DNA of 24,292 nt from Bacteroidia bacterium (GTDB lineage Bacteria; Bacteroidota; Bacteroidia; Bacteroidales; VadinHA17): positions 1 through 24,292 of the forward strand of contig JAPLDX010000009.1 of NCBI GenBank assembly GCA_026391215.1. Direction: 5' to 3'. Position numbers and translations under genes: made by a program. Of this stretch, positions 3,158-24,292 are shown piece after piece. The notes under the pieces were generated by a model that saw nothing but the letters and a program-made list of their open reading frames with translations, had not been told where the DNA came from and did not search any database. Each line of letters opens with the position of its first letter. Position 1 is the first letter of the stretch.

Positions 3158-5506
3158 TTATTCATCAGATTTACCAATAATAGTAAAAATACACTTAATA
3201 GTGTTCCCATCCTCATCTACAACAGTCAGAACATGATCCCCTGAACCAGCCATGATCTCGATCTGGTGCATAAACCTTGTTGTCGCGACATAATCCTTAT
3301 CAAGATGCCAGAAGATCTTTTTTGAGGGATTACGATGGGCCACTTCAGGAATTATCCTGGTTTGCAGGCCGGACTGGTCGCGCGGGATGAATATCTTTAT
3401 TCCCTGAGTGGGATACAGAAACTCCATGACAGGAATACTTTTATCGGATGAACATCCCGGCGCATAAGGAGGCAATACTTTATATTCAGGATGTTTTTGT
3501 CTGTAAAAATATTCCATTGCAGGAGGCAGAATGAACCACGATTCATTAGTAATCTCAGATGATGGTACACAATCTGCATTAACCTGCAGAATTCTGTTAT
3601 TATCGAGATGAATGATCTTGTGATAAGGACAGGCTTCGCTTCTTAATCCATTTACACAGGCATAAATCTCTTCTGTTTCAGGACAATCGGGGCCGGCCCT
3701 GAAGCCGCTCTGCTGGCATACTTTTATCATTGTCATTTCCTCTGCGGGTTCAGCAAACCATCCACGGGTTCCCATCATATTGACAAGGTCAAAAAGTATT
3801 GGAGCTGCAGCCGAAATACCCGTCAGGCCTGGTCTTCCTTCCCCATCTGCATTGCCGGCCCAGACTCCTATAACATAGTCCGGAGTTGTTCCGACAGCCC
3901 AGGCATCACGAAAACCGAAGCTGGTACCTGTTTTCCAGGCAATATTCTGGGAGGATGAAAAATATTGCCATCCGGCTTCTCCTTCCGGTCTGTTCACTTT
4001 CCTGAGAGCCTCATAAGTAAGCCAGATCGATGAGGCAGAAAGAGGAGGATCAGTATCTTCAATTTTTTCGGAGAGAACTGTTTCCTGTGATATCAAAACC
4101 GGTGGATGATAATCCTCCCGGAAGTATTTCTTTTCATTGTTGTAATTGCACAAAATTCTTGAAAGTGAGGCATATACTCCTGTCAGCTCCCATAATGAAG
4201 TTTCTCCGCCGCCAAGGATCAGGGACAATCCATAATGATCTGCAGGTTTTTCAAAAGTTGAGAATCCTGTTTCTGCCAGGAGATTAAGAAAACGTTCTGC
4301 ACTGTATTCCTGGAGCATCTTAACTGCAGGAATGTTAAGTGATTGTGAAAGAGCGTATGAGGCAGGGACAGCACCATTAAAGCTAAGGTCAAAATTCCTG
4401 GGTGAGAAACCCGGGAACCTTGTTGGGACATCCGCAATCAGAGTATTGGGAAGGATCTCTCCCGATTTCTGCATAGCTGCATAAAGAAGAGGTTTCAGAA
4501 TACTTCCTGTGCTCCGGTATGATTTAATGATATCGACATCATTGCCATGTTCTTCAGGATTCTCCGGGGAGCTGTTCCCAATATATGCGAGGACTTCTCC
4601 CGTTTCGACTTTTATAATTATGCAGGCTGAATTATTAATGAAATTCCCGGAAAGATCTTTCTGATGAGCACTAATTATCTCCTTCGCTCTCTCTTGTATT
4701 TCAGGAACTATTGTCGTTTTTATCCTTTCACCCCTGTTATTCATGTAGAAATAATCTGTAAGATGCGGTGCCCTGGCAGGCAGGGATCTGGGTTCTCCCG
4801 GGACAGGCTCATCAAGTGCGAGTATCAGGGTTATAGAATCGAAACATTCTTTTTCAAAAAGCTTTTTCAGGAGATCATCGCGGTGCATTTTAAGCATCTC
4901 CTGGTTCCTGCCGGGAAAAACGAGCGAAGGCGAATTCGGGAGTACTGCAAGAGCTGCAGCTTCCGCCCACGTCAGATCCTCTGATGATTTCCCTAGGTAA
5001 CGCCAGGTTGCAGCTTCCAGTCCTACAATATTACCACCAAAAGGCGCATTGGCAGCATACATATTAAGGATGACCTTTTTAGACCGGAACAGCTCAAGCT
5101 TCAGGGCGGAAAGTATCTCGATAAATTTTTGAGAATATGTACGCGGCCTGTTGCCCTGTGAGATACGCGCCACCTGCATGGTGATTGTGCTTCCTCCGCT
5201 GACGATCTTCCCTGCTTTAATATTCATGGCCAAAGCCCTTACAAGAGAAACGGGATTAATACCCGGATGCCAGTAGAAATATTTATCCTCAAAAGCCAGC
5301 AAAGCCTTTTCGAATTTTTCAGGGACATGATCGAAACCAGGGAATCTCCACTGACCATCATCTGCAATACGAGCTCCGAGGAGAGTCCCGTTATTTCCCT
5401 CAATAATAGTAGATAACGGTACGCGGAACCGCGGGTAAGGTGAAAGCAAAACCGGAGTAATTAATACTCCGGCGGCTATCAGTACTATTTTCAGTTTTCT
5501 GTTCAA
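3158..5506 (-). CDS. pbpC: Penicillin-binding protein 1C
   Basis: Transglycosylase motifs EDKYFYWHPG and GGSTITMQVAR; transpeptidase motifs SILK, SLN and KTGT; directly downstream of alpha-2-macroglobulin; TTG start. Confidence 0.93.
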   Translation of the reverse strand: MNRKLKIVLIAAGVLITPVLLSPYPRFRVPLSTIIEGNNGTLLGARIADDGQWRFPGFDHVPEKFEKALLAFEDKYFYWHPGINPVSLVRALAMNIKAGKIVSGGSTITMQVARISQGNRPRTYSQKFIEILSALKLELFRSKKVILNMYAANAPFGGNIVGLEAATWRYLGKSSEDLTWAEAAALAVLPNSPSLVFPGRNQEMLKMHRDDLLKKLFEKECFDSITLILALDEPVPGEPRSLPARAPHLTDYFYMNNRGERIKTTIVPEIQERAKEIISAHQKDLSGNFINNSACIIIKVETGEVLAYIGNSSPENPEEHGNDVDIIKSYRSTGSILKPLLYAAMQKSGEILPNTLIADVPTRFPGFSPRNFDLSFNGAVPASYALSQSLNIPAVKMLQEYSAERFLNLLAETGFSTFEKPADHYGLSLILGGGETSLWELTGVYASLSRILCNYNNEKKYFREDYHPPVLISQETVLSEKIEDTDPPLSASSIWLTYEALRKVNRPEGEAGWQYFSSSQNIAWKTGTSFGFRDAWAVGTTPDYVIGVWAGNADGEGRPGLTGISAAAPILFDLVNMMGTRGWFAEPAEEMTMIKVCQQSGFRAGPDCPETEEIYACVNGLRSEACPYHKIIHLDNNRILQVNADCVPSSEITNESWFILPPAMEYFYRQKHPEYKVLPPYAPGCSSDKSIPVMEFLYPTQGIKIFIPRDQSGLQTRIIPEVAHRNPSKKIFWHLDKDYVATTRFMHQIEIMAGSGDHVLTVVDEDGNTIKCIFTIIGKSDE

Positions 5507-8500: not shown

Positions 8501-11078
8501 CAAAAACTGGATACGGGGCATATTTATATGTTGCCTGGGTAATGCTTTCATCACCGCCCTGTTCCTGAACTTTAACAGTAAAGACAGCTTTCAGCATGCC
8601 GGGGGCATTAAGATCGTCGCCCGGATCGAATCTTATTACTGCATTTCCGTTCTCATCAATAGTATTATTGAAGATATTTACCGATTCGGACCAGAATTCA
8701 CTTACCGGATCATCAAAAACATACTGACTGTATTTTTCAAATTCCGTTTTTGCAGGCTTCAGTATATAATCGACAGATGTCCTGAGGTTCCTGGCAGCTG
8801 ATCCGTTAAGCCATTTGACATTCAGGGTCCCTGTGGTCCCGCTTACAGAACCTCCAAGAATATCCTTCGGAAATTTCAGATCAAGCTTAAGCCTGTTTGG
8901 TTTTATAGTTTCAATCCTGATGCGTTTTGTAAATGATGCTCCGCCTATACTGAAACGGGCAGTATAATTTCCTGTGACAGCATCAGATGATGTTTTTGTG
9001 ATGAAAACGAGCAAGTTGTTACCTTCCTGTTTATGTATCTGGTTATCAACTTTTTGTTCAAGAGGATTTATAAGCTCGAATTGTACCGGATGATCCTGGG
9101 GAAGATCATTTTTCATGTCCTTGATGAAAAGAGAAAGAAAAATTGAATCACCGGGTCTCCATACATCCCTTTCCCCGTAAATGAAAGCCTTAATACCGTT
9201 TTCGGGTTTTGTCCCTGAAACATCAAATGAACTGAGCGATAGCGAGGAACCGTCATTTACCTTAAGATAATTACGATCCTTATCTTTTTTAGCGATCACA
9301 AGGAATGGTTTTCTTCCGCAATAAAGAGAGGCAGAGCCATCCTGGTCGGAGTTTCCAGATACTATAATCTGCATCTGGTAATCATATACCTCAATTGCAG
9401 CCTCACTCACAGGCAGGGCTGTAATGAGATCATTTACCATAATATGCAAGACATTATCCACTCCTTTTTTTGCTATCAATCCGAGATTTGAAGCAAGGAT
9501 ATTACGTGATATGTTTTTATCCGGACTATAGAATGCGTCCTTGCATGGATCATCGCGATCCTCCCATTGAAAACCATATGAATAATACAGGTAATTCTCA
9601 TTGTCTTCATAATAATCATCGCCGCCGTCCCAGGTTTCACGGCTCAGATCCTGCGACTGCTGAAGGAGCTCCTCATACCTGGTATCGGCTTCCTGTGAAG
9701 CGCATGGATAGAGTGAATATGAACGTCTCATTGAAAGCTGAACTCTATAGAGAATGCCCGGTTCAACATCAATATAATCAGCGAGGTCTATCGTATATAG
9801 GTTCCAGTTGCCTGTACCGGTCCCCGTTCCTGTTATAAGGTCCACCCTGCCGGCATAAACAGGGCGGCCGAAACGTTTGATATAATAACCGGTATTGATA
9901 TCACTTTCCTGGAGGAAGTATGGCAGGTTATTTTCAAATATCTTGATTATTTTAAGGTCAACAGCCTTGAGATTGGCTGCCTTAAACGGGAAAATAAGAT
10001 TTTGTGACGAAGGAAGAATTACACCATCGCCGGTGAACATGATTCCCGGCATTACTGCCGTAAAATCAATTTTAGTTGAAAAATCTGATATGAGAGAGTT
10101 TCCACGTGTATTTTTTACCGATGCCTGAACATTAAGATTGACTTCGCGTCCCGTTACATTTGATGGGAGCAGGGTGACTACATTCGAGCTGACATTAATG
10201 GTAGTCAAAGGGGAAAGATCGACATAAATGATGCCGTCAAGTTCCTGCGATGCATCCACAGGGTCAGAAAATATTACATCAATTCTGGGATTTTCTCCTC
10301 CTGAGGATTTTACATCCAGCACGCTGAATTCTGCTGACGATGGGATCATAATGACTGAAGAACCTTTTTGCTTTACCCCGGAAGCTGTTCCGTCCCATGA
10401 TAAAATTAGCTCCTGCGCTTTATCAGAACGGGATATATCTTTTACGGTGAACTTATGGGTGAAACCGCCGGAATGATCCCAGGTTATTTCCATTTTCTTC
10501 TTTCCAAGTTTAGCCTCAACATACGATTCCACTTCTGCTTCCTCAATAAAATCAGAAGCTGTCAGTTCGCTATTCAGGATATATTTGTTTTCTTCTGAAG
10601 AAGGGCATTCAAGAAAACCTGTACTGATGCTGAAATCCTTTTTAAGGGTCTGTATTCTGATTGGAAATACCTTCAGCCGTTCATTTACTTTTCCCAGCTT
10701 GTCCAGGTTCAGTTCTCCGGAATATGTTTTACCGGGATCCAACAGTTTCGCAGGAGTAAATACAAGTGTTGTTTCGTCAGTCCACTCCGTTTTTCCCTTT
10801 ATGAAAGGATCAAAAATAAAGAGTCCTCCAGGAGTCTGCCTATTGGCTTTTTGTGCAAATTCCGGAGCAAAACGGATCTCTATTACAGAGTTGGCGGGTA
10901 CGATGCCTGATGTATATCCGATAATATATTCGCTGAAGCCTTTATCAAGCGGAAGAATTATTTCAGATACTTCAGGAGCTTTACCCGGAAGCTGCTGCAA
11001 CAAAGGCTTATCCTTTGGTTTGCAAGAAGTTGCGAGAAGGATAATAAAAAACAGCAGAAATAGTTTCACGGCTTTCAT
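5508..11078 (-). CDS. Bacterial alpha-2-macroglobulin lipoprotein (YfhM-like)
   Basis: Lipobox LATSC, YGERDVWRPGD, AVVDEG, thioester motif YPHGCSEQ, RDFRDDR; paired with pbpC. Confidence 0.93.
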   Translation of the reverse strand: MKAVKLFLLFFIILLATSCKPKDKPLLQQLPGKAPEVSEIILPLDKGFSEYIIGYTSGIVPANSVIEIRFAPEFAQKANRQTPGGLFIFDPFIKGKTEWTDETTLVFTPAKLLDPGKTYSGELNLDKLGKVNERLKVFPIRIQTLKKDFSISTGFLECPSSEENKYILNSELTASDFIEEAEVESYVEAKLGKKKMEITWDHSGGFTHKFTVKDISRSDKAQELILSWDGTASGVKQKGSSVIMIPSSAEFSVLDVKSSGGENPRIDVIFSDPVDASQELDGIIYVDLSPLTTINVSSNVVTLLPSNVTGREVNLNVQASVKNTRGNSLISDFSTKIDFTAVMPGIMFTGDGVILPSSQNLIFPFKAANLKAVDLKIIKIFENNLPYFLQESDINTGYYIKRFGRPVYAGRVDLITGTGTGTGNWNLYTIDLADYIDVEPGILYRVQLSMRRSYSLYPCASQEADTRYEELLQQSQDLSRETWDGGDDYYEDNENYLYYSYGFQWEDRDDPCKDAFYSPDKNISRNILASNLGLIAKKGVDNVLHIMVNDLITALPVSEAAIEVYDYQMQIIVSGNSDQDGSASLYCGRKPFLVIAKKDKDRNYLKVNDGSSLSLSSFDVSGTKPENGIKAFIYGERDVWRPGDSIFLSLFIKDMKNDLPQDHPVQFELINPLEQKVDNQIHKQEGNNLLVFITKTSSDAVTGNYTARFSIGGASFTKRIRIETIKPNRLKLDLKFPKDILGGSVSGTTGTLNVKWLNGSAARNLRTSVDYILKPAKTEFEKYSQYVFDDPVSEFWSESVNIFNNTIDENGNAVIRFDPGDDLNAPGMLKAVFTVKVQEQGGDESITQATYKYAPYPVFAGINLPGLKGKNRMLFTDEDIDVNVVTVDDKGKPVRSQVELTVYKLSYRWWWESDEENLAYYISNQIYKPVIKNTITTSGGEGSFSFKIDKKEWGRYLVRATTPEGHSTGKMLLIDWPWEYGMKGNAEGATLLTISTDKEKYNPGDEIKLSFPSPENSRVIVTLENSTGVIDEIRVPALKGNTEVKFKATPEMAPNVYAFVSVIQPHSQTINDMPVRLYGIVPVMVEDPGTRLSPQIDMADELRSQRPFEIRVSEANRNAMTYTVAVVDEGLLDITGFRTPDPWNYFYAREALGVQTWDIYDFVLGSFGGTLERIFAIGGDEAIADKTANKAQRFVPVVKFLGSYTLGAGKTNTHTITLPQYTGSVRTMVIAGSNRAFGASEKAVPVKDPLMVLVTAPRVISPGEEAALPVTLFIQKDNIRDISVKAEGNDLISFKENTKSITASGPGEKDTEFTFIAGEKTGVAKIKVTASGGGETAVYDMEIEIRSPNPPEVRAELKVLRPGEKWETTFKQFGIEGSGSAQLEISALPSINLEKRMDYLVNYPHGCSEQVTSCAFPQLFLKDLADNDPGIAQKTSDNIKEAINKLIERQMVNGGIAMWPGSYQADNWITSYAGHFMIEAERQGYNFTSGFRQKWISYQKKAAQEWRYDTRYKQSANDQAYRLFTLALAGEPEKGAMNRLRESAEIPQLSRWFLAAAYATTGRAEVAGDLLDMRSIETEPEYQYYYYGSPIRDKAIILYTLTLLKNEEQALVVLKEICDNISNESWYSTQSLAWGLFSYMKWVNMLPGDADSQAKVRISYNGEKSDQTIRQKLLWKKDLKMKDDVNSLSVENSSERPLYATLIRKGIPLYSDATRVEKGLSMKIDYLNMNLKPIDHKNLVQGTDFMMVVRISNNTFSRVDNIALTKMVPSGWEIQNTRLFEADWGIKESSFDYRDFRDDRVNTYFTLNQGETKTFVLILNAAYKGSYFQPSVWCEAMYTENCYARIPGTQVTVTGE

Positions 11079-11159
11079 GGTAGAACAGGTTAAGTTGGAA
11101 TGTCTAAATTACGAAAAAAACGGGGATAGTGGATACTGCCCATTTTACTCACCAGCCAC

Positions 11160-11235
11160 CATTCGCCTGTTTTAATCCCAGAACTTCATTCGCCTTTTAT
11201 ACCCCCCACCCATTCCGTCTTTTATACCCCCCACC
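11160..11235. repeat. Degenerate ~24-27-bp tandem repeat leading into the family A left arm
   Basis: CATTCGCCTGTTTTAATCCCA (11160), CATTCGCCTTTTATACCCCCCACC (11187), CATTCCGTCTTTTATACCCCCCACC (11211). Confidence 0.6.
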
Positions 11236-11253
11236 CCCCCGGAAGGGGGGCTA
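11226..11253. repeat. Family A left arm (A1-L)
   Basis: ACCCCCCACCCCCCCGGAAGGGGGGCTA; same layout as the arms at 14924, 17238 and 23390. Confidence 0.85.
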
Positions 11254-11334
11254 TAAACCTATACATAATAATTATAGCTAGTATAAGATTTAAGAAATAA
11301 GGATTTAAACATTTACTAACTAAAAGAAATTCAG

Positions 11335-11342
11335 TATATTTG
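11335..11342 (+). promoter_or_regulatory. Bacteroidetes -7 promoter box (TATATTTG) for the DUF559 gene
   Basis: TAnnTTTG match 23 bp upstream of ATG 11366, inside the repeat-bounded segment. Confidence 0.5.
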
Positions 11343-11365
11343 AATAGTTCGCTGCATGTTATATA

Positions 11366-11764
11366 ATGAGATCAAGAGTTATAGAAAGAAATATGTTCTA
11401 TGGTGCTAATCGTAATATTTTTGATAAAGCCCATGAATTAAGGAATAATATGACTTATGCAGAAAAAATCATGTGGGATGAGTTGAAAAACAAAAGAATT
11501 TTTAAAGTCAGATTTCGAAGACAACATCCAATTGATATTTTTATAGTTGATTTCTATTGTCATGAAATTAAACTTGCTATTGAAATAGATGGTGAAGTTC
11601 ATCTAAAAAAGGAAGTGATTGAATATGATGATGGCAGAGCTCATGATATTGAGAAATTTGGAATTAAAATACTCAGGTTTACTAATGATCAGGTATTTAA
11701 TCATCGCTCAGGAATTATTAAAGAAATCCTAATAACCATTAATCAACTGATTTCTAGTAAATAA
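11366..11764 (+). CDS. DUF559 / Vsr-like PD-(D/E)XK endonuclease domain protein
   Basis: A.ELRNNMT.AE..MW, FRRQHPI..FIVDFYC, LAIEIDG.VH, D..R, G..ILRFTN; visibly more AT-rich than its neighbours. Confidence 0.9.
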   Translation: MRSRVIERNMFYGANRNIFDKAHELRNNMTYAEKIMWDELKNKRIFKVRFRRQHPIDIFIVDFYCHEIKLAIEIDGEVHLKKEVIEYDDGRAHDIEKFGIKILRFTNDQVFNHRSGIIKEILITINQLISSK

Positions 11765-11800
11765 TGTCACAAAATCTTATTAAATCATGGATTGGGTTTC

Positions 11801-11828
11801 AACCCCCCTTTAGGGGGGCTTGGGGGGT
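11801..11828. repeat. Family A right arm (A1-R), inverted relative to A1-L
   Basis: AACCCCCCTTTAGGGGGGCTTGGGGGGT; reverse complement ACCCCCCAAGCCCCCCTAAAGGGGGG resembles the left arms. Confidence 0.85.
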
Positions 11829-11857
11829 CATAAATCACGCAGGAATCTAAATCTTCT

Positions 11858-12760
11858 TTACGGTGTAACCATCTCCGTTCTGAGCTTGGCTACATAATCT
11901 CTGATAGTGTTCAGTGTTTCGACAGTAACTGTCATCTTTGCTCCCGAGGAGCGCAGTACCTGCCTGGTTGTGTCTATTTCGAGATCGCCCTTTTCAAAAT
12001 AAATATCGAAAGTGTCGAAATAATTTTTCAGGAACTTCAGTTTTTTGGTATAGTAAACCACGACAGGATCGTCATAATAATTTTTCATGAAGCTCAGGAG
12101 GGAAGTAAGAGTATATTTTTGTTCAGCAATCTTCTGAACCACTTCCGCGTCGGGATTGACAGGATTATAGACAAGCTGGGTGGCAATGAACATTGCCTCA
12201 ACCCATCCTCCCATTACCATTAATCCCGCAGTGCTCTCCCTGCCACCCTCCCTCAGGTGATTTTCAATATCATAATAGGCATTTTTCATAAGGGCAGTAA
12301 TTGTATCCGGATCGGCCAGATCATTCTGTACTCTCCTGATAGGCTCGGTCAGCATATTATCCGGGATGCCAAGCTTATTGCTCATCTCCCTGATCGTTAC
12401 CATATAGTCAATAACCTCCTGGCCAAAACCGAACATCTTCAGATATCCGAAGTCGACTCCATAAACCCCCGTGTTGATTGCTGCCTTTGAATTACTGAGA
12501 TACAGATCCCTGTTTGATACAGGATTAAGGGTTGCATCATTATATGGTACTGCAAGTCTGTTGAAAATCACGCATATCTCCATTGGCGTAAGAAGACCAT
12601 AGTAAGTTTCATCTTTTGCTACCGGCTCAATAGTGCCGGTCGAATCAATTTTATATGTAGAAAAACTTGGTGTAAATGTGTCTTTCTCAGGAGTTTTGGG
12701 TTTACAGGATGCGATCACCAGTAATAGAGATATAAGCAGAAGGGGAAGAGGACTTTTCAT
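11858..12760 (-). CDS. Conserved hypothetical lipoprotein
   Basis: Lipobox IASC; AINTGVYGVDFGY, GGWVEAM and IAEQKY motifs; start taken at MKSPLP (12760); TAATTTTG box at 12779-12786. Confidence 0.7.
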   Translation of the reverse strand: MKSPLPLLLISLLLVIASCKPKTPEKDTFTPSFSTYKIDSTGTIEPVAKDETYYGLLTPMEICVIFNRLAVPYNDATLNPVSNRDLYLSNSKAAINTGVYGVDFGYLKMFGFGQEVIDYMVTIREMSNKLGIPDNMLTEPIRRVQNDLADPDTITALMKNAYYDIENHLREGGRESTAGLMVMGGWVEAMFIATQLVYNPVNPDAEVVQKIAEQKYTLTSLLSFMKNYYDDPVVVYYTKKLKFLKNYFDTFDIYFEKGDLEIDTTRQVLRSSGAKMTVTVETLNTIRDYVAKLRTEMVTP

Positions 12761-12827
12761 ATAAGCAGGTTTATTAATCAAAATTAGTAATATATATGAA
12801 TAATCAGATTTATTTTGATCCTCATGT

Positions 12828-12938
12828 ACTCACCCCCTTCTTTTCCCCCTCTCTACTTCGTAAAGAGGGGGAATGTATTCATTTACGGTACTTTAACCCC
12901 CCTCTTTGCTTCAGCAGAGAGGGGGTTGGGGGGTGAGT
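12828..12938. repeat. Family A-related 111-bp palindromic doublet (A2)
   Basis: Outer inverted repeat ACTCACCCCC / GGGGGTGAGT enclosing two hairpins, CCCCCTCTCTAC-TTC-GTAAAGAGGGGG and CCCCCTCTTTGC-TTCA-GCAGAGAGGGGG. Confidence 0.8.
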
Positions 12939-12955
12939 GCGTGAGTCCCTATAGA

Positions 12956-14902
12956 TCATAATACTATCCTGTTCCCGAGCTTCTCCGATATCATCCTCAT
13001 CGCAGCCTTCAGGTTCTGGTCCTTTTTCTGAAGAGCAAGGATTCTCTCTGTATCCCCTTTTTTTGCAGCATCCTCAAGCTGAATCATATTTTCCTTGAGC
13101 CGGACTTTAATCTTGTCGCTTTTGAACTTTAACACAACATCCGGGACAATATCTTTGAGCTTCATATCCTCCGTTTCAACAAAAGTCTGTTTATCTCTCC
13201 ATATCCTGCTAAGTTCATGGGAGTAGGAAAGAAGGTCGGCAGACAACTGTGAAATAGCCGGATCCTCATGTTTTATGAATTGCTTGTCGCCTGGGAAAAT
13301 GCCCTGCTGGCAGAAAAACCTGAATTCCTCAAAGATCTTTGCACAGGTTTCGTCATTAAAAAGAAGATCATCAGAAGTGATCTCCCTGACAATATAATCA
13401 GATACCATGGTCACCTCTTCCTTGCCGTCCTCGCTGCGTATCTTTCTTTCAAATTCTGTGCTTCCGAATTTCAGAAGCAGCCTGATAATCTCTTTTTCGG
13501 AATAATATGTTATGATTTCTTGTTTTACCTGTTTTTGTATTACCTGTGGCGGAACAGGAAGATCCTCGATCCCGGGATATTTATTCCTGTCCTGGAATGA
13601 TCTCTGCTGGCGAAGCTTATTGACTTCATGATAAAGGACAGCTTCCGTAATATCAAGATGAGTGCTGCATTCCTTTATATAAACAGTTCTGTTGATCGTT
13701 TCAGGAATAACGGCAATGGACCTTACAATATCGCGGATAAGATTTGCCTTACGGACCGGATCATTACTGGCTTCTTCAAGGAGCAGGTCGGTTTTGAAGC
13801 GGATAAAATCGGTTTCCTTTTCCCTGAGATATTTTATGAATTCTTCATTGCTGACCTTCTTTGAATATGAATCAGGATCCTCCCCGTCGGGAAGAAGGAC
13901 AATCCTGACATTCATCCCCTCTTCCAGTACAATGTCAATACCCCTGATAGACGCTTTTATTCCGGCAGAATCACCATCATAGAGGATCGTGATATTTGGT
14001 GTGAACCGCTTTATAAGCCTGACCTGCTCCTGGGTGAGAGATGTACCTGATGATGCGACAACATTCTCAATACCAGCCTCATGCAGCGACATAACATCTG
14101 TGTAGCCTTCAACAAGATAGCACCTGTCATCCTGTGTTATGGCCTTCCGTGCCTGGAAAATACCATAAACGATCCGGCTTTTGTGATATATCTCCGATTC
14201 AGGGGAGTTTAAATATTTTGCTGTTTTAACGTCTGATTTAAGGATCCTTCCGCCAAAACCGAGAACTTGTCCGGATAATGAATGGATTGGGAACATCACC
14301 CTTCCGCTGAACCTGTCGAAGACATGATCTTCATGCTGGATCGATAACCCTGTCTTAAGCAAAAAATCCTGCTTATAGCCATCATCCAGTGCCTGCCTGG
14401 TAAAGGCATCCCGTTTTTCGAAACTATAACCTACCTCGAATTTCTTAAGTGTATTCTGCTGGAATCCCCTCTCTTTGAAATAAGAAAGACCAACTGTAAT
14501 CCCCTCGTCGGTTTGAAAAAGATTTTCTGTAAACTTTCTTGCGGCATATGCTGTAACGACCAGAAGACTTTCACGTTCATTCTGTTTTTCAAGCTCTTCG
14601 GGAGTCAGCTCTTTTTCGACAACTTCAATATGATATTTTCTGGCAAGGTATTTAAGGGCTTCAGGATAGGAAAGATGTTCATGCTCCATGATGAAGTTAA
14701 CCGAGTTACCGACCTTGCCGCATCCGAAGCATTTAAATATCTCTTTAGAAGGCGAAACAGTAAATGACGGTGTTTTTTCATTATGGAAAGGACAGAGGCC
14801 CAGATAATTAACACCGCGTTTCTTCAGGGGCACAAACTCCTGGATCACATCAACGATCTGCGCTGCATCAAGTATTCTCTCTATTGTGGGGCGGTCAATC
14901 AT
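12956..14902 (-). CDS. dnaG: DNA primase
   Basis: Zinc finger CPFHNEKTPSF..CFGC, KYLNSPES, TOPRIM motifs VEGYTDV and YDGDSAG, DPD. Confidence 0.97.
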   Translation of the reverse strand: MIDRPTIERILDAAQIVDVIQEFVPLKKRGVNYLGLCPFHNEKTPSFTVSPSKEIFKCFGCGKVGNSVNFIMEHEHLSYPEALKYLARKYHIEVVEKELTPEELEKQNERESLLVVTAYAARKFTENLFQTDEGITVGLSYFKERGFQQNTLKKFEVGYSFEKRDAFTRQALDDGYKQDFLLKTGLSIQHEDHVFDRFSGRVMFPIHSLSGQVLGFGGRILKSDVKTAKYLNSPESEIYHKSRIVYGIFQARKAITQDDRCYLVEGYTDVMSLHEAGIENVVASSGTSLTQEQVRLIKRFTPNITILYDGDSAGIKASIRGIDIVLEEGMNVRIVLLPDGEDPDSYSKKVSNEEFIKYLREKETDFIRFKTDLLLEEASNDPVRKANLIRDIVRSIAVIPETINRTVYIKECSTHLDITEAVLYHEVNKLRQQRSFQDRNKYPGIEDLPVPPQVIQKQVKQEIITYYSEKEIIRLLLKFGSTEFERKIRSEDGKEEVTMVSDYIVREITSDDLLFNDETCAKIFEEFRFFCQQGIFPGDKQFIKHEDPAISQLSADLLSYSHELSRIWRDKQTFVETEDMKLKDIVPDVVLKFKSDKIKVRLKENMIQLEDAAKKGDTERILALQKKDQNLKAAMRMISEKLGNRIVL

Positions 14903-14923
14903 GGCATAAAGATATTTAAAAAT

Positions 14924-15032
14924 ACCCCCCGACCCCCCTGAAGGGGAGCTAATTCCAGTATTTATTTTTAATTTGTATTAACTGAGTATTAGGCACCTTT
15001 AGGGGGCAGGCCAGCTTCAGCTGGACGGGGGT
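14924..15032. repeat. Family A 109-bp doublet (A3)
   Basis: ACCCCCCGACCCCCCTGAAGGGGAGCTAATT, AT-rich spacer, then ATTAGGCACCTTTAGGGGGCAGGCCAGCTTCAGCTGGACGGGGGT. Confidence 0.85.
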
Positions 15033-15077
15033 AAATAGTCAAACTTTCACTAAATTTATTCCCTAAATTCATTCTGT

Positions 15078-15767
15078 ATGAAGAAACTTGTAATCCTCAC
15101 GGGAGCCGGAATGAGCTCTGAAAGCGGTATCCGTACTTTCAGGGAAGCAGGCGGATTATGGGAGGAATATGATGTTACTGAAGTTGCCTCTCCAATGGGC
15201 TGGTGGAAGAACAGGGATCTTGTTTTAAGGTTTTATAATGAGAGAAGAGCACAGCTTGCAAGCTGCAAACCAAATGAAGGACATTTAGGTGTAGCGGCAC
15301 TTGAGAAATATTTTAATGTTCAGGTAATCACCCAGAATATTGATAATCTTCATGAACGGGCAGGAAGCACAAAAGTGCTTCATCTGCATGGAGAGCTAAC
15401 CAAAGCAAGAAGCACTGTTGATCCATTGCTGATCTATGATATTGGTTATAAAGAGATAAATCCGGGAGACAAATGTGAAAAAGGAAGTCAGCTGCGGCCA
15501 CACATTGTATGGTTCGGAGAAGCCGTACCCATGATGGATGAGGCGATAAAAATAACTGAAACAGCAGATATTTTTGTTGTAATCGGCTCATCATTGAATG
15601 TATATCCTGCAGCCGGATTGATTGAATATGCTCCCCGGGATGCATCAATTTGGCTTATTGATCCAAACGAAGTTATTATTCCTGTATACAGGAAGGTGGA
15701 GGTCATAAAAACAAAGGCTTCAGAGGGGATCGTAATCTTGACTAAAAGGTTATTATCTGATAATTAA
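15078..15767 (+). CDS. cobB: Sir2-family NAD-dependent deacylase
   Basis: LTGAGMSSESGIRTFR, FYNERR, ITQNIDNLHERAG, HLHGEL, LRPHIVWFGE, GSSLNVYPAAGL. Confidence 0.93.
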   Translation: MKKLVILTGAGMSSESGIRTFREAGGLWEEYDVTEVASPMGWWKNRDLVLRFYNERRAQLASCKPNEGHLGVAALEKYFNVQVITQNIDNLHERAGSTKVLHLHGELTKARSTVDPLLIYDIGYKEINPGDKCEKGSQLRPHIVWFGEAVPMMDEAIKITETADIFVVIGSSLNVYPAAGLIEYAPRDASIWLIDPNEVIIPVYRKVEVIKTKASEGIVILTKRLLSDN

Positions 15768-15779
15768 TTAGATGTTGTA

Positions 15780-16073
15780 ATGAAAGGATTTGTGTACATA
15801 TTAACAAATGTCACTAATTCGGTGTTATATACAGGTGTAACAAGTGATATCAAAAACAGGTTAAGACAACACAAATCAAGAAAACACATTAATAGTTTCA
15901 CAGCCAGATATAATTTAACAAAACTTGTGTATGTAGAAGAGTTTAATTCTATAGGGGAGGCAATAAAAAGAGAGAAACAAATTAAAGCAGGAAGCAGAAA
16001 GAAAAAAGTCAATCTCGTTACCGGGATGAATCCGGACTGGGATGACTTGATCAGGATAGTTGAAGATCAATGA
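15780..16073 (+). CDS. Stand-alone GIY-YIG nuclease (YhbQ/UPF0213-like)
   Basis: FVYILTN..NSVLYTGVTSD...RL.QH, FTARYN..KLVYVE, AIKREKQIK, NP.W.DL; the TGA stop overlaps repeat B1. Confidence 0.9.
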   Translation: MKGFVYILTNVTNSVLYTGVTSDIKNRLRQHKSRKHINSFTARYNLTKLVYVEEFNSIGEAIKREKQIKAGSRKKKVNLVTGMNPDWDDLIRIVEDQ

Positions 16074-16213
16074 GATTGCTTCGTCTTCCGCTTCGCGGAA
16101 TCCTCGCAATGACGGTACTTTCTATTAAGCTTGTTATAAGATAAGGGACAATATTATATAGAATGCACCGTCATTGCGAGGAGTCCCGCTCCGAAGGGAC
16201 GACGAAGCAATCT
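16073..16213. repeat. Family B 141-bp inverted doublet (B1)
   Basis: AGATTGCTTCGTC-[TTCCGCTTCGCGGAA]-TCCTCGCAATGACGGT ... ACCGTCATTGCGAGGA-[GTCCCGCTCCGAAGGGAC]-GACGAAGCAATCT. Confidence 0.9.
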
Positions 16214-16253
16214 TCCGGAATTTGTAGTATTTTTATAAATTAAACTTTCATAA

Positions 16254-16829
16254 ATGCAACAAAAATCCAGAAAGATTATTCTCGCAGTCACCGGTGCCAG
16301 CGGATCAATTTATGCTAAGAACCTGCTTGACAGATTAGGGAGTCTGAAAAATCCGCCTGCAGAGATCGCTGTTGTCTTTTCGGAAACAGCAAAAGAGATA
16401 TGGGAATACGAAATCGGAGAAAAATACAAAGAAATTCTGCCTGCGAAGGAATATAAAAACAATTCGTTTTTTGTGCCATTCGCATCAGGATCATCTGATT
16501 ATGACATCATGATTATATGTCCGGCATCGATGGGTATTCTTGGAAGAATTGCCAATGGCATATCTGATGATCTGATAGCCAGAGCCGCCGATGTTATGCT
16601 TAAGGAGAGAAGGAAGCTGATACTTGTCCCGCGTGAGACTCCCTATAACCTGATCCATATAAGAAACATGGAAACGCTTTCGCTGGCGGGAGCGATTGTT
16701 TGTCCTGCGACGCCGTCATTTTACAACAGGCCAAAGACAATTGATGATCTTGTAAATACAGTTATTGAAAGGATTATATCCCTGGCAGGATTTGAGTCAG
16801 ACACTTACAGGTGGATGGAAAATGATTGA
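16254..16829 (+). CDS. ubiX: Flavin prenyltransferase UbiX
   Basis: AVTGASG, ASGS, PASMG, RAADVMLKERR, PRETP, P.FY..P. Confidence 0.92.
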   Translation: MQQKSRKIILAVTGASGSIYAKNLLDRLGSLKNPPAEIAVVFSETAKEIWEYEIGEKYKEILPAKEYKNNSFFVPFASGSSDYDIMIICPASMGILGRIANGISDDLIARAADVMLKERRKLILVPRETPYNLIHIRNMETLSLAGAIVCPATPSFYNRPKTIDDLVNTVIERIISLAGFESDTYRWMEND

Positions 16830-17265
16830 CAGGAGAATAATAAAATTTATCAGGAAACATCGTGTTCTTACCGTGGCAACCTCAGTTGAAAATGAGCCAT
16901 GGTGCGCCAATTGCTTTTATGTTTATCTTGAAGAAGAAAATGCTATAGTATTTACAACAGATCCAACAACCCGGCACGGACAGGAGTTTCTTAAGAATGC
17001 ACAGATCGCCGGTTCCATTGTACTCGAGACTAAGATCATCGGTAAAATACAGGGTATTCAATTTCAGGGGATTGTTTCAGAACCCGAAGGTGAAATGATT
17101 GACAAATCTCAAAAAGCTTATATCAGACAATTTCCTGTTGCGATGCTGATGGATACTCATCTGTGGGTAGTCACTCTCACACATATAAAATATACAGATA
17201 ACAGGCTGGGTTTCGGAAAGAAGCTTATTTGGGAAAAACCCCCCACCCCCCTGAAGGGTGGCTAA
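16822..17265 (+). CDS. Pyridoxamine 5'-phosphate oxidase-like FMN-binding protein (YhbP-like)
   Basis: PWCANCFY, TRHG, IQGIQF.G, KYTDNRLGFGKKL.W; start MIDRRII (16822) overlaps the ubiX end; the last residues PPTPLKGG* are encoded by repeat A4. Confidence 0.8.
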   Translation: MIDRRIIKFIRKHRVLTVATSVENEPWCANCFYVYLEEENAIVFTTDPTTRHGQEFLKNAQIAGSIVLETKIIGKIQGIQFQGIVSEPEGEMIDKSQKAYIRQFPVAMLMDTHLWVVTLTHIKYTDNRLGFGKKLIWEKPPTPLKGG

Positions 17266-17347
17266 AATGAGGAATTAAAATAGTTTTTTTATAAACCAGA
17301 AATTAGGCCCCCTTCAGGGGGCAGGCCAGCTTTATCTGGTCGGGGGT
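17238..17347. repeat. Family A 110-bp doublet (A4)
   Basis: ACCCCCCACCCCCCTGAAGGGTGGCTAA ... AATTAGGCCCCCTTCAGGGGGCAGGCCAGCTTTATCTGGTCGGGGGT, between convergent genes. Confidence 0.85.
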
Positions 17348-17946
17348 TATTTCCTCAGCTGTTGCTTCACGATCTTTGCTATATACTTCCCCAGAATATC
17401 AAACTCAATATTTACTACAGATCCTTTTTTGATCTGGTGGAAATTAGTAACCTCATAAGTAAAGGGAATAATAGCCACCTGGAAAGATTTCGGCTGTGAA
17501 TTTACAACCGTCAGACTGACACCGTTTACTGATACAGATCCCTTTTCCACAGTTAAATAATCATCCTGAAGCGGCTCATATTCAAAGGTATAATACCAGC
17601 TTCCTCCTGCTTCTTTCACATCAGTGCAAACAGCAGTCTGATCAACATGTCCCTGCACCATGTGCCCGTCCAGACGTCCATCAAGCCTGGCGCTGCGTTC
17701 AAGATTCACCTTATCGCCAACCTTCAGCAATCCGAGATTCGATTTTTCAAGTGTTTCCCTTATGGCAGTGACAGTATAGTTGTCTTTATCCTTCTTTACC
17801 ACCGTAAGACATACCCCATTATGGGAAATGCTCTGATCTACCTTAAGCTCCCTGGTAAAAGAACATTTCATGGTGATATGAATATTGTCTTTCTCTTTTT
17901 CAATTTTCACCACAGGTGCAGCTTCTTCTACTATTCCTGAAAACAT
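17347..17946 (-). CDS. ribE: Riboflavin synthase (alpha chain)
   Basis: N-terminal MFSGIVEE, SISHNGVCLTV, VNLER, GHMVQGHVD, KGSVSVNGVSLTV, VNIEFDILGKY (called ribC in E. coli). Confidence 0.95.
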   Translation of the reverse strand: MFSGIVEEAAPVVKIEKEKDNIHITMKCSFTRELKVDQSISHNGVCLTVVKKDKDNYTVTAIRETLEKSNLGLLKVGDKVNLERSARLDGRLDGHMVQGHVDQTAVCTDVKEAGGSWYYTFEYEPLQDDYLTVEKGSVSVNGVSLTVVNSQPKSFQVAIIPFTYEVTNFHQIKKGSVVNIEFDILGKYIAKIVKQQLRK

Positions 17947-18002
17947 AACTATCTCATTTAAGAATACGATTCAAATTTAATAAAATTAAGGATGTGATTA
18001 AG

Positions 18003-18081
18003 AAGTCTTGCAGGTCTTGCAAGTCTTGCCGGTCATGCAGGTCATTTTGTGATATAATGACTTGCACGACTTGCATGACCT
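18003..18081. repeat. Inverted pair of 9-bp tandem arrays
   Basis: Five forward units (AAGTCTTGC AGGTCTTGC AAGTCTTGC CGGTCATGC AGGTCATTT), then about three reverse units (AATGACTTGC ACGACTTGC ATGACCT). Confidence 0.75.
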
Positions 18082-18082
18082 A

Positions 18083-18499
18083 TTATTTATTTCTTCTAAT
18101 TTTCTTCTTATCGACCCGAAACCCATCCTTCTTCCAGGCTGTAATCCCTCCATCAAGGTTGTAGAGTTTCCGGAAACCTTTATCATAGAAAAAGAGCAGG
18201 GCTTTTGTGCTTCTCCCTCCGGAATAACAATAACAGAAAAGAGATAATCTCTTGTCAAGAGTATCTGCAGCGATATCAAAACCTTCAGATGAAGGAAGAA
18301 AAAGCGCTCCCTTGATTCTCGATTTCCGGTACTCGAAAAACTCCCGGACATCAATCAGCAATGCAGAGTCTTCCCTTAAAAATTGCATTTGAAAATCATA
18401 AGGATCAAGAGACTGATATTTAACACTATCGGTAGACTGGGATAGTGTTGCAGTACAAAATGTTAAAAGTATAGTAGTAATAATTAGACTCTTTCTCAT
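18083..18499 (-). CDS. Secreted rhodanese-like domain protein
   Basis: Signal peptide, LIDVRE..EY...RIKGA, CYSGGRS active loop, YNLDGGITAW; start taken at MRKSLII (18499). Confidence 0.85.
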   Translation of the reverse strand: MRKSLIITTILLTFCTATLSQSTDSVKYQSLDPYDFQMQFLREDSALLIDVREFFEYRKSRIKGALFLPSSEGFDIAADTLDKRLSLFCYCYSGGRSTKALLFFYDKGFRKLYNLDGGITAWKKDGFRVDKKKIRRNK

Positions 18500-18576
18500 G
18501 CGGTTCAAGAATGGTGTAAATTACGTAAAAAAAGACATACGGAGTAATACAATATTTATACTTGTTTTGAACAGAG

Positions 18577-18717
18577 AGATTGCTTCGTCTTCCGCTTCGC
18601 GGAATCCTCGTAATGACAGTGCATTCTATTTAGTACTCTTCCTGATCCTATAACAAACTTAATCGAAAGTACAGTCATTGCGAGGAGTCCCGAGTACTCG
18701 GGACGACGAAGCAATCT
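18577..18717. repeat. Family B 141-bp inverted doublet (B2)
   Basis: AGATTGCTTCGTC-[TTCCGCTTCGCGGAA]-TCCTCGTAATGAC ... GTCATTGCGAGGA-[GTCCCGAGTACTCGGGAC]-GACGAAGCAATCT. Confidence 0.9.
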
Positions 18718-18748
18718 TCATGCCCTAAATATAATATTATCGTTAATT

Positions 18749-18776
18749 AACCCCCCTTTAGGGGGGAGAGGGGGGT
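18749..18776. repeat. Solo family A right arm (A5)
   Basis: AACCCCCCTTTAGGGGGGAGAGGGGGGT; identical to 11801-11828 except for a 3-nt linker. Confidence 0.8.
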
Positions 18777-18785
18777 CTTTTTTAT

Positions 18786-18793
18786 TATCTTTG
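18786..18793 (+). promoter_or_regulatory. Bacteroidetes -7 promoter box (TATCTTTG) for ileS
   Basis: TAnnTTTG match about 32 bp upstream of ATG 18826. Confidence 0.55.
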
Positions 18794-18825
18794 TCCGTTT
18801 TTAACGACAATAACTACCTGATATA

Positions 18826-21800: not shown

Positions 21801-22266
21801 AAGCAGTGTTGTTTCCGGACTTTCTCAGCAGGAAATAGTCTCATTTGAAGCAAATAAATCGCATTCGTTCAGTATAAATGAACAGCAGATAACACTTACC
21901 ATTGAAGATGTCGAGATCATTTCCGAAGACATCCCGGGATGGCAGGTAGCCAATGAAGGCAGACTAACAGTTGCCCTCGATATTACAGTTACTGATGAGC
22001 TTCGTTATGAAGGCATTGCAAGGGAGTTCGTTAACCGTATTCAGAACATCCGCAAGGAGAACGGTTATGACGTAACTGATAAAATAACAGTTCAGATTGA
22101 GGATCACGAATTTGTCCATGAAGCGATAAAAAGGCATGCAGCTTATATTGGTTCGCAAACCCTGGCGACCTCGGTCTCTTTGGCGGCATTAGTAAAAAGT
22201 TCTGGCTCCAGGGAGGTTGAAATTGATGAAGTCGTTATAAAAATACTTGTTAATAAGGCTGGTTGA
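18826..22266 (+). CDS. ileS: Isoleucine--tRNA ligase (long, type 2-like)
   Basis: EGPPSANG.PGIHH, GWDTHGLP, AWTTTPWTLPSN, GTGIVH, DWNLSRSRFWGTP, DVWFDSG, EGVDQTRGWF, KMSKR. Confidence 0.97.
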   Translation: MGKRFPEYKTLDLSKINKDILKIWDENDTFRKSVREIDGKGEFVFYEGPPSANGIPGIHHVMARTIKDTICRYKTQCGYEVKRKAGWDTHGLPIELGVEKALGITKEDIGTEKISIIDFNKACRRDVMRYTDQWEDLTRKMGYWLNMDHPYLTYDNRYIETLWWLLKQLYTKGFLYQGYTIQPYSPAAGTGLSSHELNLPGCYKDVKDTTCIALFQLIRDEKSEFLFNHNDTPSVHIMAWTTTPWTLPSNTALAVGKEIKYIKVRSFNPYSGEPITVILAKDLLHSLFPEANGGIHFSEYKPGDKKVPYKVIDEFPGSKLEGINYEQLIDWVKPDKGAFRVLTGDFVTTEDGTGIVHIAPTFGADDYKIAKEYNVPPMILKRKDGSMGPMVDKKGYMIPISDLDDKFVKERVNFNTYSVFAGRPVKNEYDESLSENTDTLDVDIAVMLKLSGKAFRIEKQVHSYPHCWRTDKPVLYYPLDAWFIRTTAFRERLIELNNTINWKPQSTGSGRFGKWLENLVDWNLSRSRFWGTPLPIWITEDRKEEKCIGSAEELKAEIEKSIKAGFMKKNPLAAFIPGDNTQENYEKFDLHRPFVDEIILISPSGKKMFREPDLIDVWFDSGAMPYAQAHYPFENKENFSDKFPADFIAEGVDQTRGWFFTLHTIAVMTSDSVAFKNIISNGLVLDKNGNKMSKRLKNAVDPFSTIEEYGSDPLRWYMLTNAQPWDNLKFDFAGVDEVKRKFFGTLYNTYSFFALYANVDNFRYNEKDIPINERPEIDRWIISLLNSLVKEVGNCYEDYDLTRAGRAIQDFVTENLSNWYVRLNRKRYWGGDYDQDKIAAYQALYTCLETISMLTAPIAPFYMDMLFRDLSITTGKYKEESVHLTRFPNYDEKLIDKDLEERMDIAQKISSMILGLRRKVSIKVRQPLAKIMIPLPDKTFKKKFEAVKDLVLTEVNVKEVEYIDDTAAILVKKIKPNFKTLGPKYGKLMKEISSVVSGLSQQEIVSFEANKSHSFSINEQQITLTIEDVEIISEDIPGWQVANEGRLTVALDITVTDELRYEGIAREFVNRIQNIRKENGYDVTDKITVQIEDHEFVHEAIKRHAAYIGSQTLATSVSLAALVKSSGSREVEIDEVVIKILVNKAG

Positions 22267-22275
22267 AACCGAAAG

Positions 22276-22409
22276 GGATTGCTTCGTCTTCCCGAGTACT
22301 CGGGAATCCTCGCAATGACGGTATACGCATTTAGTTTGGGCTCAGTTCAACTGTAACAGCATTGAATGTACCGTCATTGCGAACCCGACGAAGGAGGGAG
22401 AAGCAATCT
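22276..22409. repeat. Family B 134-bp inverted doublet (B3)
   Basis: GGATTGCTTCGTC-[TTCCCGAGTACTCGGGAA]-TCCTCGCAATGACGGTA ... TACCGTCATTGCGAA-[CCCGACGAAGGAGGG]-AGAAGCAATCT, 9 bp after the ileS stop. Confidence 0.88.
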
Positions 22410-22460
22410 CACCGACTTTGTACCAATTTTGGTACATTTGTATTAAAATAAGCCTCAGAA

Positions 22461-23390: not shown

Positions 23391-23500
23391 CCCCCCAACC
23401 CCCCTAAAGGGGGGCTAATTCCAAATTGTTTACAAGACTATTATATATTTGGGATTTAGGCCCCCTTTAGGGGGCAGGACAGCTTTAGCTGGCCGGGGGT
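23390..23500. repeat. Family A 111-bp doublet (A6)
   Basis: ACCCCCCAACCCCCCTAAAGGGGGGCTAATTCCAAAT ... ATTTGGGATTTAGGCCCCCTTTAGGGGGCAGGACAGCTTTAGCTGGCCGGGGGT; the first base is the A of the upstream TGA stop. Confidence 0.87.
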
Positions 23501-23507
23501 GAATAAT

Positions 23508-23537: not shown

Positions 23538-23556
23538 ACTATCTAAAGTATAATTA

Positions 23557-24266: not shown

Positions 24267-24292
24267 TTTGCCACCGCACATTTAACTAATAA

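Follow-up and report, generated by a model that had tools for sequence, protein, structure and literature searches.

A DUF559 nuclease gene between inverted three-block repeats in a Bacteroidia genome: a candidate selfish nuclease-plus-repeat element

What kind of genetic element keeps a nuclease gene between inverted copies of a dispersed repeat? The question is raised by a 24,292-nt stretch of DNA from a Bacteroidia bacterium (contig JAPLDX010000009.1, here called the window; it is contig C88 of a 3.39-Mb assembly of 135 contigs with 41.2% GC). Between an alpha-2-macroglobulin gene and an open reading frame (ORF) with a lipoprotein-like N terminus, the window holds a 603-bp unit in which two inverted arms, each built of three blocks of C-runs and G-runs, enclose a gene of the DUF559 family. 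An earlier note on the window described this arrangement and took the unit to be the autonomous parent of short, gene-less arm doublets nearby, related to them as an insertion sequence (IS) is to its miniature transposable elements with inverted repeats (MITEs). The sequence observation itself was confirmed. We found that such arms pair almost exclusively with DUF559 genes across many genomes, that arms and protein diverge together, and that the occupancy of a given site varies between related genomes. The pattern of sequences leads us to favor, with some reserve, a compact selfish nuclease-plus-repeat element, comparable to IS/MITE pairs or to the repetitive extragenic palindromic (REP) doublets called REPINs and their REP-associated tyrosine transposases (RAYTs). 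The 603-bp segment is probably one complete copy of that element.

The genome contains nine DUF559 matches above the Pfam cutoff and one degenerate copy, nearly all of them surrounded by C-run/G-run arms. Each subgroup of DUF559 proteins has its own arm sequence within the common three-block layout. A looser pattern was used to measure how far each left-type arm lies from the right-type arm that follows it: below 100 nt in 52 pairs, between 100 and 3,000 nt in 7 pairs, and above 3,000 nt in 10 pairs. A DUF559 ORF is enclosed in six of the seven pairs of the middle class, and the remaining pair is a doublet whose spacer measures 124 nt; no other gene that could move the arms lies between the arm pairs of this genome at this spacing. 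Under a strict two-sided test, 6 of 10 DUF559 loci were bracketed, compared with 3 of 2,545 other ORFs. The four loci missed by the strict test are those on contigs C3 (cut by the contig end), C109 and C111 (arms outside the pattern), and C38 (a different arrangement). Nucleotide alignment of the paralogue pairs C109/C64 (80% identity) and C111/C16 (72%) extends only from outer arm end to outer arm end, and the flanks of both pairs are unrelated.

The same association was observed in other genomes. PF04480, the Pfam family of DUF559, was present in 26 of 41 genomes (this genome, G000, and 40 relatives), including 19 of the 24 relatives from the genus. Scanning a single genome from each species recovered 80 loci with homologues, most of them from metagenome-assembled genomes of Bacteroidales and also from named Marinifilum, Roseimarinus, Dysgonomonas, and Salegentibacter. 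Flanks were analyzed for 117 units, 109 from other Bacteroidota genomes and 8 from this genome. Within 250 nt, a left-type arm was found upstream of 69 units, a right-type arm downstream of 67, and both at 55, whereas both arms were found at only 1 of 131 neighboring ORFs in the same loci. Median distances are 68 nt between the arm and the ATG and 24 nt between the stop codon and the arm. With a generic motif finder, 13 of 25 and 39 of 72 units had motifs on both sides (controls, 0 of 12 and 1 of 104). These comparisons correspond to a check of homologue flanks proposed in the earlier note, and homologues do not generally lack arms. Close homologues (64 to 77% identity) carry arms of the same family as those of the window, here called family A. 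Identity between proteins correlated with identity between left arms (Spearman 0.478), with none of 999 Mantel permutations reaching as high a value. Gene and arms thus evolve together, as a single unit; given their physical linkage, the correlation does not by itself show that the protein recognizes the arms. In 76 of 79 loci, the GC content of the ORF is below that of its flanks.

In a sample of 151 genomes from a second phylum, that of the genome containing locus L130, DUF559 was present in 73. The 30 loci fetched from this sample consisted of 15 fusions to proteins of more than 650 aa and 15 stand-alone genes. Three-block motifs lay within 200 nt of the stand-alone genes on at least one side in 14 of 15 cases and on both sides in 8 of 15, compared with 0 of 7 controls. 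DUF559 forms the C-terminal part of 650- to 1,100-aa proteins in many genomes, and such fusions were excluded from the flank counts. The family is strongly expanded in one genus genome (G078), which has 32 matches, several of them head to tail about 573 nt apart (e.g., C11:139084-141123). Units with another arm family, termed type a (G000 C125:15943-16144 and 18671-19042; L013 and L016), lie at the 3' ends of FtsX-like permease genes. At these units about 55 nt of the permease gene end is duplicated on both sides in a locus-specific manner, and in L016 the whole block is in tandem; this duplication fits no standard mechanism.

The arms of the 603-bp unit are longer than had been recognized. 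The left arm core (11226-11253) reads A-C6-A-C7-GGAA-G6-CTA, and the right arm core (11801-11828), its inverted counterpart, reads AA-C6-TTTA-G6-CTT-G6-T. Each core extends inward through a repeat of 9 to 10 nt per arm that was missing from the listing in the earlier note: CTATAAACC at 11251-11259, after the left G-run, and TGGGTTTCAA at 11793-11802, before the right C-run. With this inner inverted repeat included, the terminal inverted repeats are about 35 nt each. The window contains four occurrences of the pattern C6-N4-G6, compared with an expectation of 0.01 derived from 100 shuffles. Folded as single-stranded DNA, the left arm forms a hairpin of -9.7 kcal/mol, with 3 of 200 shuffles equally stable, under a folding program that models hairpins only. 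From the left-arm G6 to the right-arm C6 there are 552 nt at 26.6% GC, as expected from the AT-rich spacer of about 550 bp described before. The claims of a TAnnTTTG box in this spacer, of an intact DUF559 ORF, and of an orientation opposite to both neighbors also held (Table 1); we take TAnnTTTG to be the -7 box of Bacteroidota. TTTG-N5-6-(T)CGCTGC also precedes the ATG in L062, L064, L065, L079, and other loci. The slightly longer string, TTTG followed after 5 to 6 nt by (T)CGCTG(C/T)A (window 11340-11356), is found before these DUF559 starts and also before the starts of Y1 transposase genes of the same genome (G000 C57, C100, and C101), and may be a shared leader or promoter feature of both types of small selfish gene.

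Outside the left arm, flank plus outer C-run is present in two direct copies. Comparable tandem partial copies lie outside the arms in L073, L080, L068, and L064, with longer arrays in L068, L073, and L080, and these pile-ups could arise by repeated breakage and repair at the arms or by polymerase slippage at the structure; if the arms are cut, the partial copies hint that the cut may lie at the second block/loop border. In L068 (1480-2500 and 2885-3360), whole and partial left arms repeat in tandem over about 850 nt upstream of DUF559, and right arms are repeated downstream, an array far larger than that of the window. A scan of positions 11000-12000 against Rfam gave two matches, both far below the gathering score and dismissed (LasI thermometer, 25 bits against 76; CRISPR-DR10, 18 against 39). 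PADLOC gave weak matches only (E values of 6.6e-4 and 3.8e-3), and no defense system was assigned.

How the unit relates to arms without a gene was examined across the 135 contigs, where the strict pattern identified 62 arms. Eleven strict left-right pairs form doublets of 88 to 113 bp on other contigs, with both arms and the inner repeat, in the layout A-C6-N2-C6-TGAA/TAAA-G6-(C/T)TATAAACCCA, about 25 unrelated nt, and TGGGTTT(A/C)A-C6-TTCA/TTTA-G6-N2-G6-T. Having the same extended ends, these 11 doublets are true gene-less counterparts of the unit. The three doublets of the window itself, which the earlier note had given the same arms as the unit, share its left arm but carry a variant right arm, in which a C5/G5 hairpin and an extra CCAGC-N4-GCTGG hairpin precede the last G-run. 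Two of the three form a single long hairpin when folded as single-stranded DNA (Table 1). The generic three-block finder detected 149 motifs in the genome and 1 in a block-shuffled genome. Family A accounts for 49 motif copies in this genome, with one gene. The arms were checked to be intergenic for the window copies and the displayed loci. The only consistent feature in the flanks of the 11 doublets and of the units is an A before and a T after the arms. The scattered gene-less doublets and solo motifs are unit termini without the gene.

If the unit were a fixed part of the chromosome, it should recur between the same neighbors. The lipoprotein orthologue was found in 60 of 60 genus genomes sampled; 29 loci were fetched, of which 21 keep the macroglobulin gene within the locus and 8 are rearranged or too short. 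DUF559 was absent from the lipoprotein-macroglobulin junction in all 21 relatives, in intergenic regions of 34 to 551 nt. Arms of other families are present at 6 of the 21 junctions, with clear gene-less doublets in L045 and L051. This comparison had been proposed in the earlier note, and a DUF559 gene conserved at the site without arms was not encountered. The unit is not fixed at this junction. The divergence of the intergenic DNA from that of the relatives is too great for the insertion point to be located at base resolution. In L048 (G018), a family-A unit lies 2 kb further on, beside the macroglobulin gene and in the opposite orientation, as seen in the overlapping locus L067. Homologous units lie beside the start of the macroglobulin gene in L068, L073, and L075, with a primase gene, not the lipoprotein gene, on the other side in L068 and L073. 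Other intergenic sites of the same neighborhood are occupied in L065/L072, L069, and L101; the unit of L101 follows the orthologue of ORF 22461-23390, at the place where the window has an empty doublet. Since a few other genomes carry a homologous unit beside the macroglobulin gene, long residence at one site with losses elsewhere and recent insertion are equally likely; an old unit lost many times is indistinguishable from one inserted repeatedly at a hot spot.

Public contigs of four sequencing runs were compared with the window over positions 9000-24292, and these contigs break at the arms. Apparent joints from 11256/11263 to 11793 were considered as traces of excision and ruled out, as their sides are at most 34 nt and the inserted letters are those of the spacer of the doublet on C94. 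Summed contig depth was several-fold higher at 12570-13079, 17670-18179, and 23280-24292 in all four runs, which suggests that these stretches are common to other organisms or are repeats.

The protein of the unit belongs to DUF559 (E value of 2.2e-30; 105.2 bits against a cutoff of 20.6; residues 19-125). Pfam gave only this match and a subthreshold match to MTES_1575, and Pfam, NCBIfam, and PADLOC together gave DUF559-type or weak restriction enzyme matches only, with no transposase, integrase, or defense family. By sequence, the closest solved structure is 3HRL, the DUF559 protein NGO0050 of Neisseria gonorrhoeae (E value of 9.1e-15). We modeled the 132-aa protein with AlphaFold2 (46 sequences; predicted local distance difference test score of 83.5) and searched the model with Foldseek. 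The top match was again 3HRL, with a template modeling score of 0.91 on the target and a root mean square deviation of 1.6 Å over 100 columns. It was followed by the catalytic domain of I-Bth0305I (3R3P; probability 1.00, template modeling score of 0.79 on the target, 20 to 21% identity) and, at lower rank and distant, by Escherichia coli Vsr (1VSR/1CW0). The protein is thus predicted to have the restriction endonuclease-like fold seen in 3HRL. Residues Q53, D62, F63, E73, D75, and H79 are invariant in 109 full-length homologues, and D88, R91, and N107 are 99% conserved; the nuclease core is under strong constraint. D62, E73, D75, and H79 form the D ... E-x-D-G-x-x-H set of the Vsr-like core, and a catalytic role for them is inferred from the family. 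A table in Steczkiewicz et al. (2012) places DUF559 in the same superfamily group as Vsr. DUF559 is a large family with a solved structure and no known function.

With these data the unit can be compared with known systems. REPIN/RAYT systems resemble it in that a small gene lies between inverted copies of a dispersed hairpin repeat, that gene-less doublets fold as long hairpins, and that a clade-specific repeat family goes with a low-copy gene. They differ in the enzyme, which in the unit is a predicted PD-(D/E)xK Vsr-like protein without a Y1_Tnp match and not an HUH/Y1 transposase, and in the arms, which have an extra third block and lack the GTAG/CGTC tag. Seven Y1_Tnp (RAYT/IS200-like) matches exist in the genome, on contigs C31, C101, C119, C100, C93, C57, and C62 (loci L141-L147). 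These genes are flanked by other, unrelated REP-like hairpins, most of them by families of their own, and none is bracketed by unit-type arms; a C/G-run arm lies about 270 nt past a truncated Y1 copy on C93. A RAYT as the mover of the unit-type arms was ruled out, since all seven Y1 genes carry other repeats. Therefore, a canonical REP/RAYT system and the DUF559 system coexist in this genome and are distinct.

With IS/MITE pairs the unit shares terminal inverted repeats, a single ORF, shorter gene-less copies with the same ends, and homology between copies that stops at the terminal repeats; it differs in having no known transposase family, no near-identical copies, and no visible family-A target-site duplication. 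EDxHD homing endonucleases such as I-Bth0305I share the Vsr-like catalytic fold and are likewise encoded by selfish nuclease genes. According to the abstract of the work describing them, however, enzymes of that type are multidomain proteins whose genes lie within group I introns or inteins, whereas the unit protein is a single 132-aa domain encoded by a free-standing intergenic ORF between inverted repeats; no Rfam family was above threshold in 11000-12000, and no intron RNA was found there. From Vsr itself the protein differs in lacking a Vsr Pfam match and in having no cytosine methyltransferase gene next door. By defining features, the system belongs to none of REPIN/RAYT, IS/MITE, or homing endonucleases.

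The closest likeness of the arms is to the repeats that have been known since the 1990s, from E. coli and from further bacteria, as BoxC, PIT, or TM elements (Bergler 1992 and Hoyne/Maher 2000, as cited in PMC4666352). Holder et al. (2015; PMC4666352) describe intrastrand triplex motifs (TM) made of three blocks in succession, which read C-G-G along one strand and C-C-G along the opposite one. Their E. coli version, TMECO, is the BoxC or PIT element of earlier authors and occurs 23 times in MG1655, with inverted pairs in five instances. In vitro, TMECO adopts a triplex and the motif blocks polymerases; rearrangement is more frequent at TM loci, and TMECO copy numbers vary widely among close relatives (PMC4666352). 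The main text of that paper describes no transposase, integrase, or other mobility gene near TM repeats, and it contains none of the words endonuclease, DUF, and ycjD. The window arms likewise consist of three G/C blocks of at least 6 nt, with loops of 1 to 4 nt (1 to 6 nt in the definition of TM), and they are intergenic, multicopy, often in inverted pairs, uneven in number between relatives, and far above chance. Arms of other DUF559 clades (C109/C64 of this genome, L162, L154, L167, and L170) come near the TMECO pattern. The window blocks, however, are homopolymers of 6 nt (C6/G6), in contrast to the 9-nt CCCTCNCCC blocks of TMECO, and the window arms do not match its consensus CCCTCNCCC-N3-6-GGGNGAGGG-N3-GGGNGAGGG; the main text of PMC4666352 gives no mobility gene for TM repeats, whereas a DUF559 gene lies between the arms here. 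By sequence, the window arms share the TM architecture and not the E. coli consensus.

E. coli K-12 (NC_000913.3) has a single DUF559 gene, ycjD, of 354 nt. Its product belongs, with NGO0050, to the family of the unit protein, which matches PRK09767 of NCBIfam at an E value of 4e-18, below the cutoff. Like the unit gene, ycjD adjoins a triplex-motif repeat: TMECO no. 9 (1,351,204-1,351,239) lies 168 nt beyond the stop codon (L148, region 1351204-1351760). An inverted, degenerate TM copy covers the last codons of the gene, and a second copy of the last ~40 nt of the gene lies in between; a recognizable motif is present on the 3' side only. With 23 motifs spread over 4.64 Mb, a given gene of 354 nt would have a TM motif within 200 nt by chance with a probability of about 0.004. 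The ycjD region is present in 3,347 to 3,377 of 5,426 complete E. coli genomes, with the fabI-ycjD-sapF arrangement in 3,347, and it is missing in about 38%. Two genomes without ycjD that were opened (EcN and an O157:H7) have a TetR/RND/MFS efflux cluster at the site; a 2026 paper identifies the replacing cluster as the eef operon and infers that the replacement took place independently at least twice. In a spread sample, near-identical BoxC places numbered 2 to 6 in 20 rows with ycjD and 1 to 4 in 10 rows without it, which is a hint from a hand tally that is confounded by phylogroup and covers near-identical repeats only. Our literature searches, which extended to neither subscription journals nor the supplements of Holder et al., found no published link between DUF559 and BoxC/PIT/TM repeats. 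We tentatively propose, while regarding it as the less probable outcome, that DUF559 nucleases are the missing partner enzymes of these repeats across phyla, YcjD and BoxC included; this would be a new class of element with triplex-forming ends and, as its only protein, a Vsr-like nuclease that reads non-B DNA.

For the unit itself, the preferred reading of a selfish nuclease-plus-repeat element would work as follows. The nuclease would recognize the arms of its own family, folded or as duplex, and nick or cut there, and repair of the break would spread the arms and, more rarely, the gene, either by copying between dispersed arms or by rejoining of a released segment. The joining step would fall to host repair, because a hydrolytic nuclease alone cannot join DNA. 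The doublets would be nonautonomous partners of the element, in the way that REPINs depend on RAYTs and MITEs on insertion sequences. The structural half of the comparison drawn in the earlier note therefore stands, in that unit and doublets have common extended termini, DUF559 is the near-sole cargo in this genome, and homologues are generally bracketed. Its other half, the autonomous parent, finds no such support: the protein appears to be a Vsr-like hydrolytic nuclease, there is no visible target-site duplication, the paralogues are old, and arms occur without a close homologue. A REPIN/RAYT-like relation, or a homing-type gene inside doublets, fits equally well.

Several observations weigh against the preferred reading. 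By its sequence DUF559 would be a hydrolytic Vsr-like PD-(D/E)xK nuclease and not any known transposase. The gene-carrying paralogues of the genome are 72 to 90% identical in nucleotides and hence include no recent copy. The doublet spacers show no relation among themselves or to the unit's interior, and thus the doublets are not recent deletion derivatives of this copy. Visual inspection of the flanks of the units and of the 11 doublets revealed no target-site duplication for family A, and an excision junction sought in the public contigs of the four runs yielded only other doublets. The macroglobulin-side units of L067, L068, L073, and L075 diverge like the genes that flank them, which fits vertical descent rather than movement. 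Two-sided bracketing under the strict pattern reaches only the 55 of 117 units given above, and arm geometry deviates in some lineages, for example, at C38 of this genome and at L162 and L170. In the genus, at least 12 family-A arms were counted by hand in 12 of 14 genomes with a homologue of at least 59% identity and in 17 of 62 without one, with both thresholds set after inspection of the data and with relatives that are not independent. The Mantel and co-occurrence figures are inflated by shared ancestry. Those 17 genomes keep their arms without a close homologue, among them G007 (99% complete, 55 arms) and G060 (97% complete, 41 arms).

The persistence of arms in genomes without the gene would also be expected if the gene were a passenger, with the doublets spreading by other means, such as a different enzyme or errors of replication at the structure, and a free-standing DUF559 nuclease cutting the center of empty cognate doublets and being copied in by repair. 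The match to the I-Bth0305I catalytic domain (probability 1.00), the position of the gene always in mid-frame at fairly fixed distances from the arms (the medians of 68 and 24 nt), the filled and empty doublets in the same intergenic region (L101 and the window), and the homing-typical site preference of the type-a units at conserved 3' ends of FtsX-like permease genes all favor such homing. An efficient homing nuclease, however, should fill more than the one or two doublets per family and genome that are usually filled while many stay empty, no other arm-moving gene was found between arms, and arms of about 35 nt are short as repair homology. We consider homing into preexisting doublets unlikely.

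The divergence of the macroglobulin-side units in step with their flanking genes, together with the invariant acidic and histidine residues, would suit a domesticated, vertically inherited, structure-specific nuclease that processes repeat hairpins or triplexes, for example, at stalled forks, its place between arms being left over from its origin. The polymerase block that the motif causes in vitro and the more frequent rearrangement of TM loci (PMC4666352) are in line with such a role, as is the reported conservation of ycjD across E. coli phylogroups A, B1, and C. A caretaker would not be expected to be as patchy as DUF559, which is missing from 15 of 41 relatives, with the ycjD region missing in about 38% of E. 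coli; nor would one expect several copies and degenerate copies per genome, an ORF richer in AT than its flanks at 76 of 79 loci, or units at different sites in related genomes. We regard this explanation as quite improbable. It is very improbable that arms and gene have no functional link and that the arms are regulatory or terminator-like hairpins or insertion-prone DNA near DUF559 by chance or through common hot spots, for although several repeat families, unrelated to one another, have hot spots in the intergenic regions here and a T-run follows one solo arm (18751-18775), the enrichment is large and repeated (6/10 versus 3/2,545, 55/117 versus 1/131, and 14/15 versus 0/7), arms and protein clades vary together, T-runs are missing at most arms, and PIT elements are quoted in PMC4666352 as having no promoter or terminator activity. 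A reading of the arms as terminators or insulators was rejected on the missing T-runs and the enrichment with DUF559.

Table 1. Features of the 603-bp unit, its neighborhood, and related repeats in the window, with the loci of DUF559 fusions in other genomes
Feature	Position or locus	Strand	Description
603-bp unit	11226-11828		Two inverted arms enclosing the DUF559 gene
Left terminal arm	11226-11259	+	A-C6-A-C7-GGAA-G6, block order C-C-G, plus inner repeat CTATAAACC
Right terminal arm	11793-11828	+	Inner repeat TGGGTTTCAA, then C6-TTTA-G6-CTT-G6-T, block order C-G-G
Promoter-like box TATATTTG	11335-11342	+	Fits TAnnTTTG
CGCTGC, conserved	11350-11355	+	Ahead of the DUF559 start codon
DUF559 endonuclease gene, intact, 132 aa	11366-11764	+	Pfam PF04480
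Direct 18-nt copies (flank plus outer C-run), 25 nt apart	11194-11211, 11219-11236		Second copy runs into the left arm
Neighbor: alpha-2-macroglobulin gene, 1,856 aa	5508-11078	minus	
Neighbor: 307-aa ORF	11858-12781	minus	Lipoprotein-like N terminus, without Pfam match
Gene-less doublet, variant right arm	14925-15036	.	Long hairpin, z -3.8
Gene-less doublet, variant right arm	17237-17347	.	
Gene-less doublet, variant right arm	23391-23500	.	Directly after the stop codon of ORF 22461-23390; long hairpin, z -6.0
Solo right-type arm	18751-18775	+	90% identical to the right arm of the unit; T-run follows
DUF559 fusion loci	L151, L152, L155-L159, L161, L163, L164, L168, L169, L174, L179, L009, L011		

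A second, unrelated repeat family, palindromic and about 190 bp long, is present in the window at 16047-16234, 18551-18738, and 22250-22430. Its arms (e.g., 16097-16125 and 16158-16186) are 90% complementary, and one copy abuts the solo arm at 18751.

The origin and spread of BoxC/PIT/TM repeats are still open, because no transposase or integrase has been found near them (main text of PMC4666352). The cross-phylum pairing of DUF559 with such repeats is a candidate explanation for both the protein family and the repeats. Should the nuclease act on folded arms, it would represent a new kind of structure-reading nuclease, and the system would join REPIN/RAYT as an independent second example of that way of life. 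The link between DUF559 and BoxC can be put to a direct test in E. coli K-12, with its single DUF559 gene and 23 catalogued repeats.

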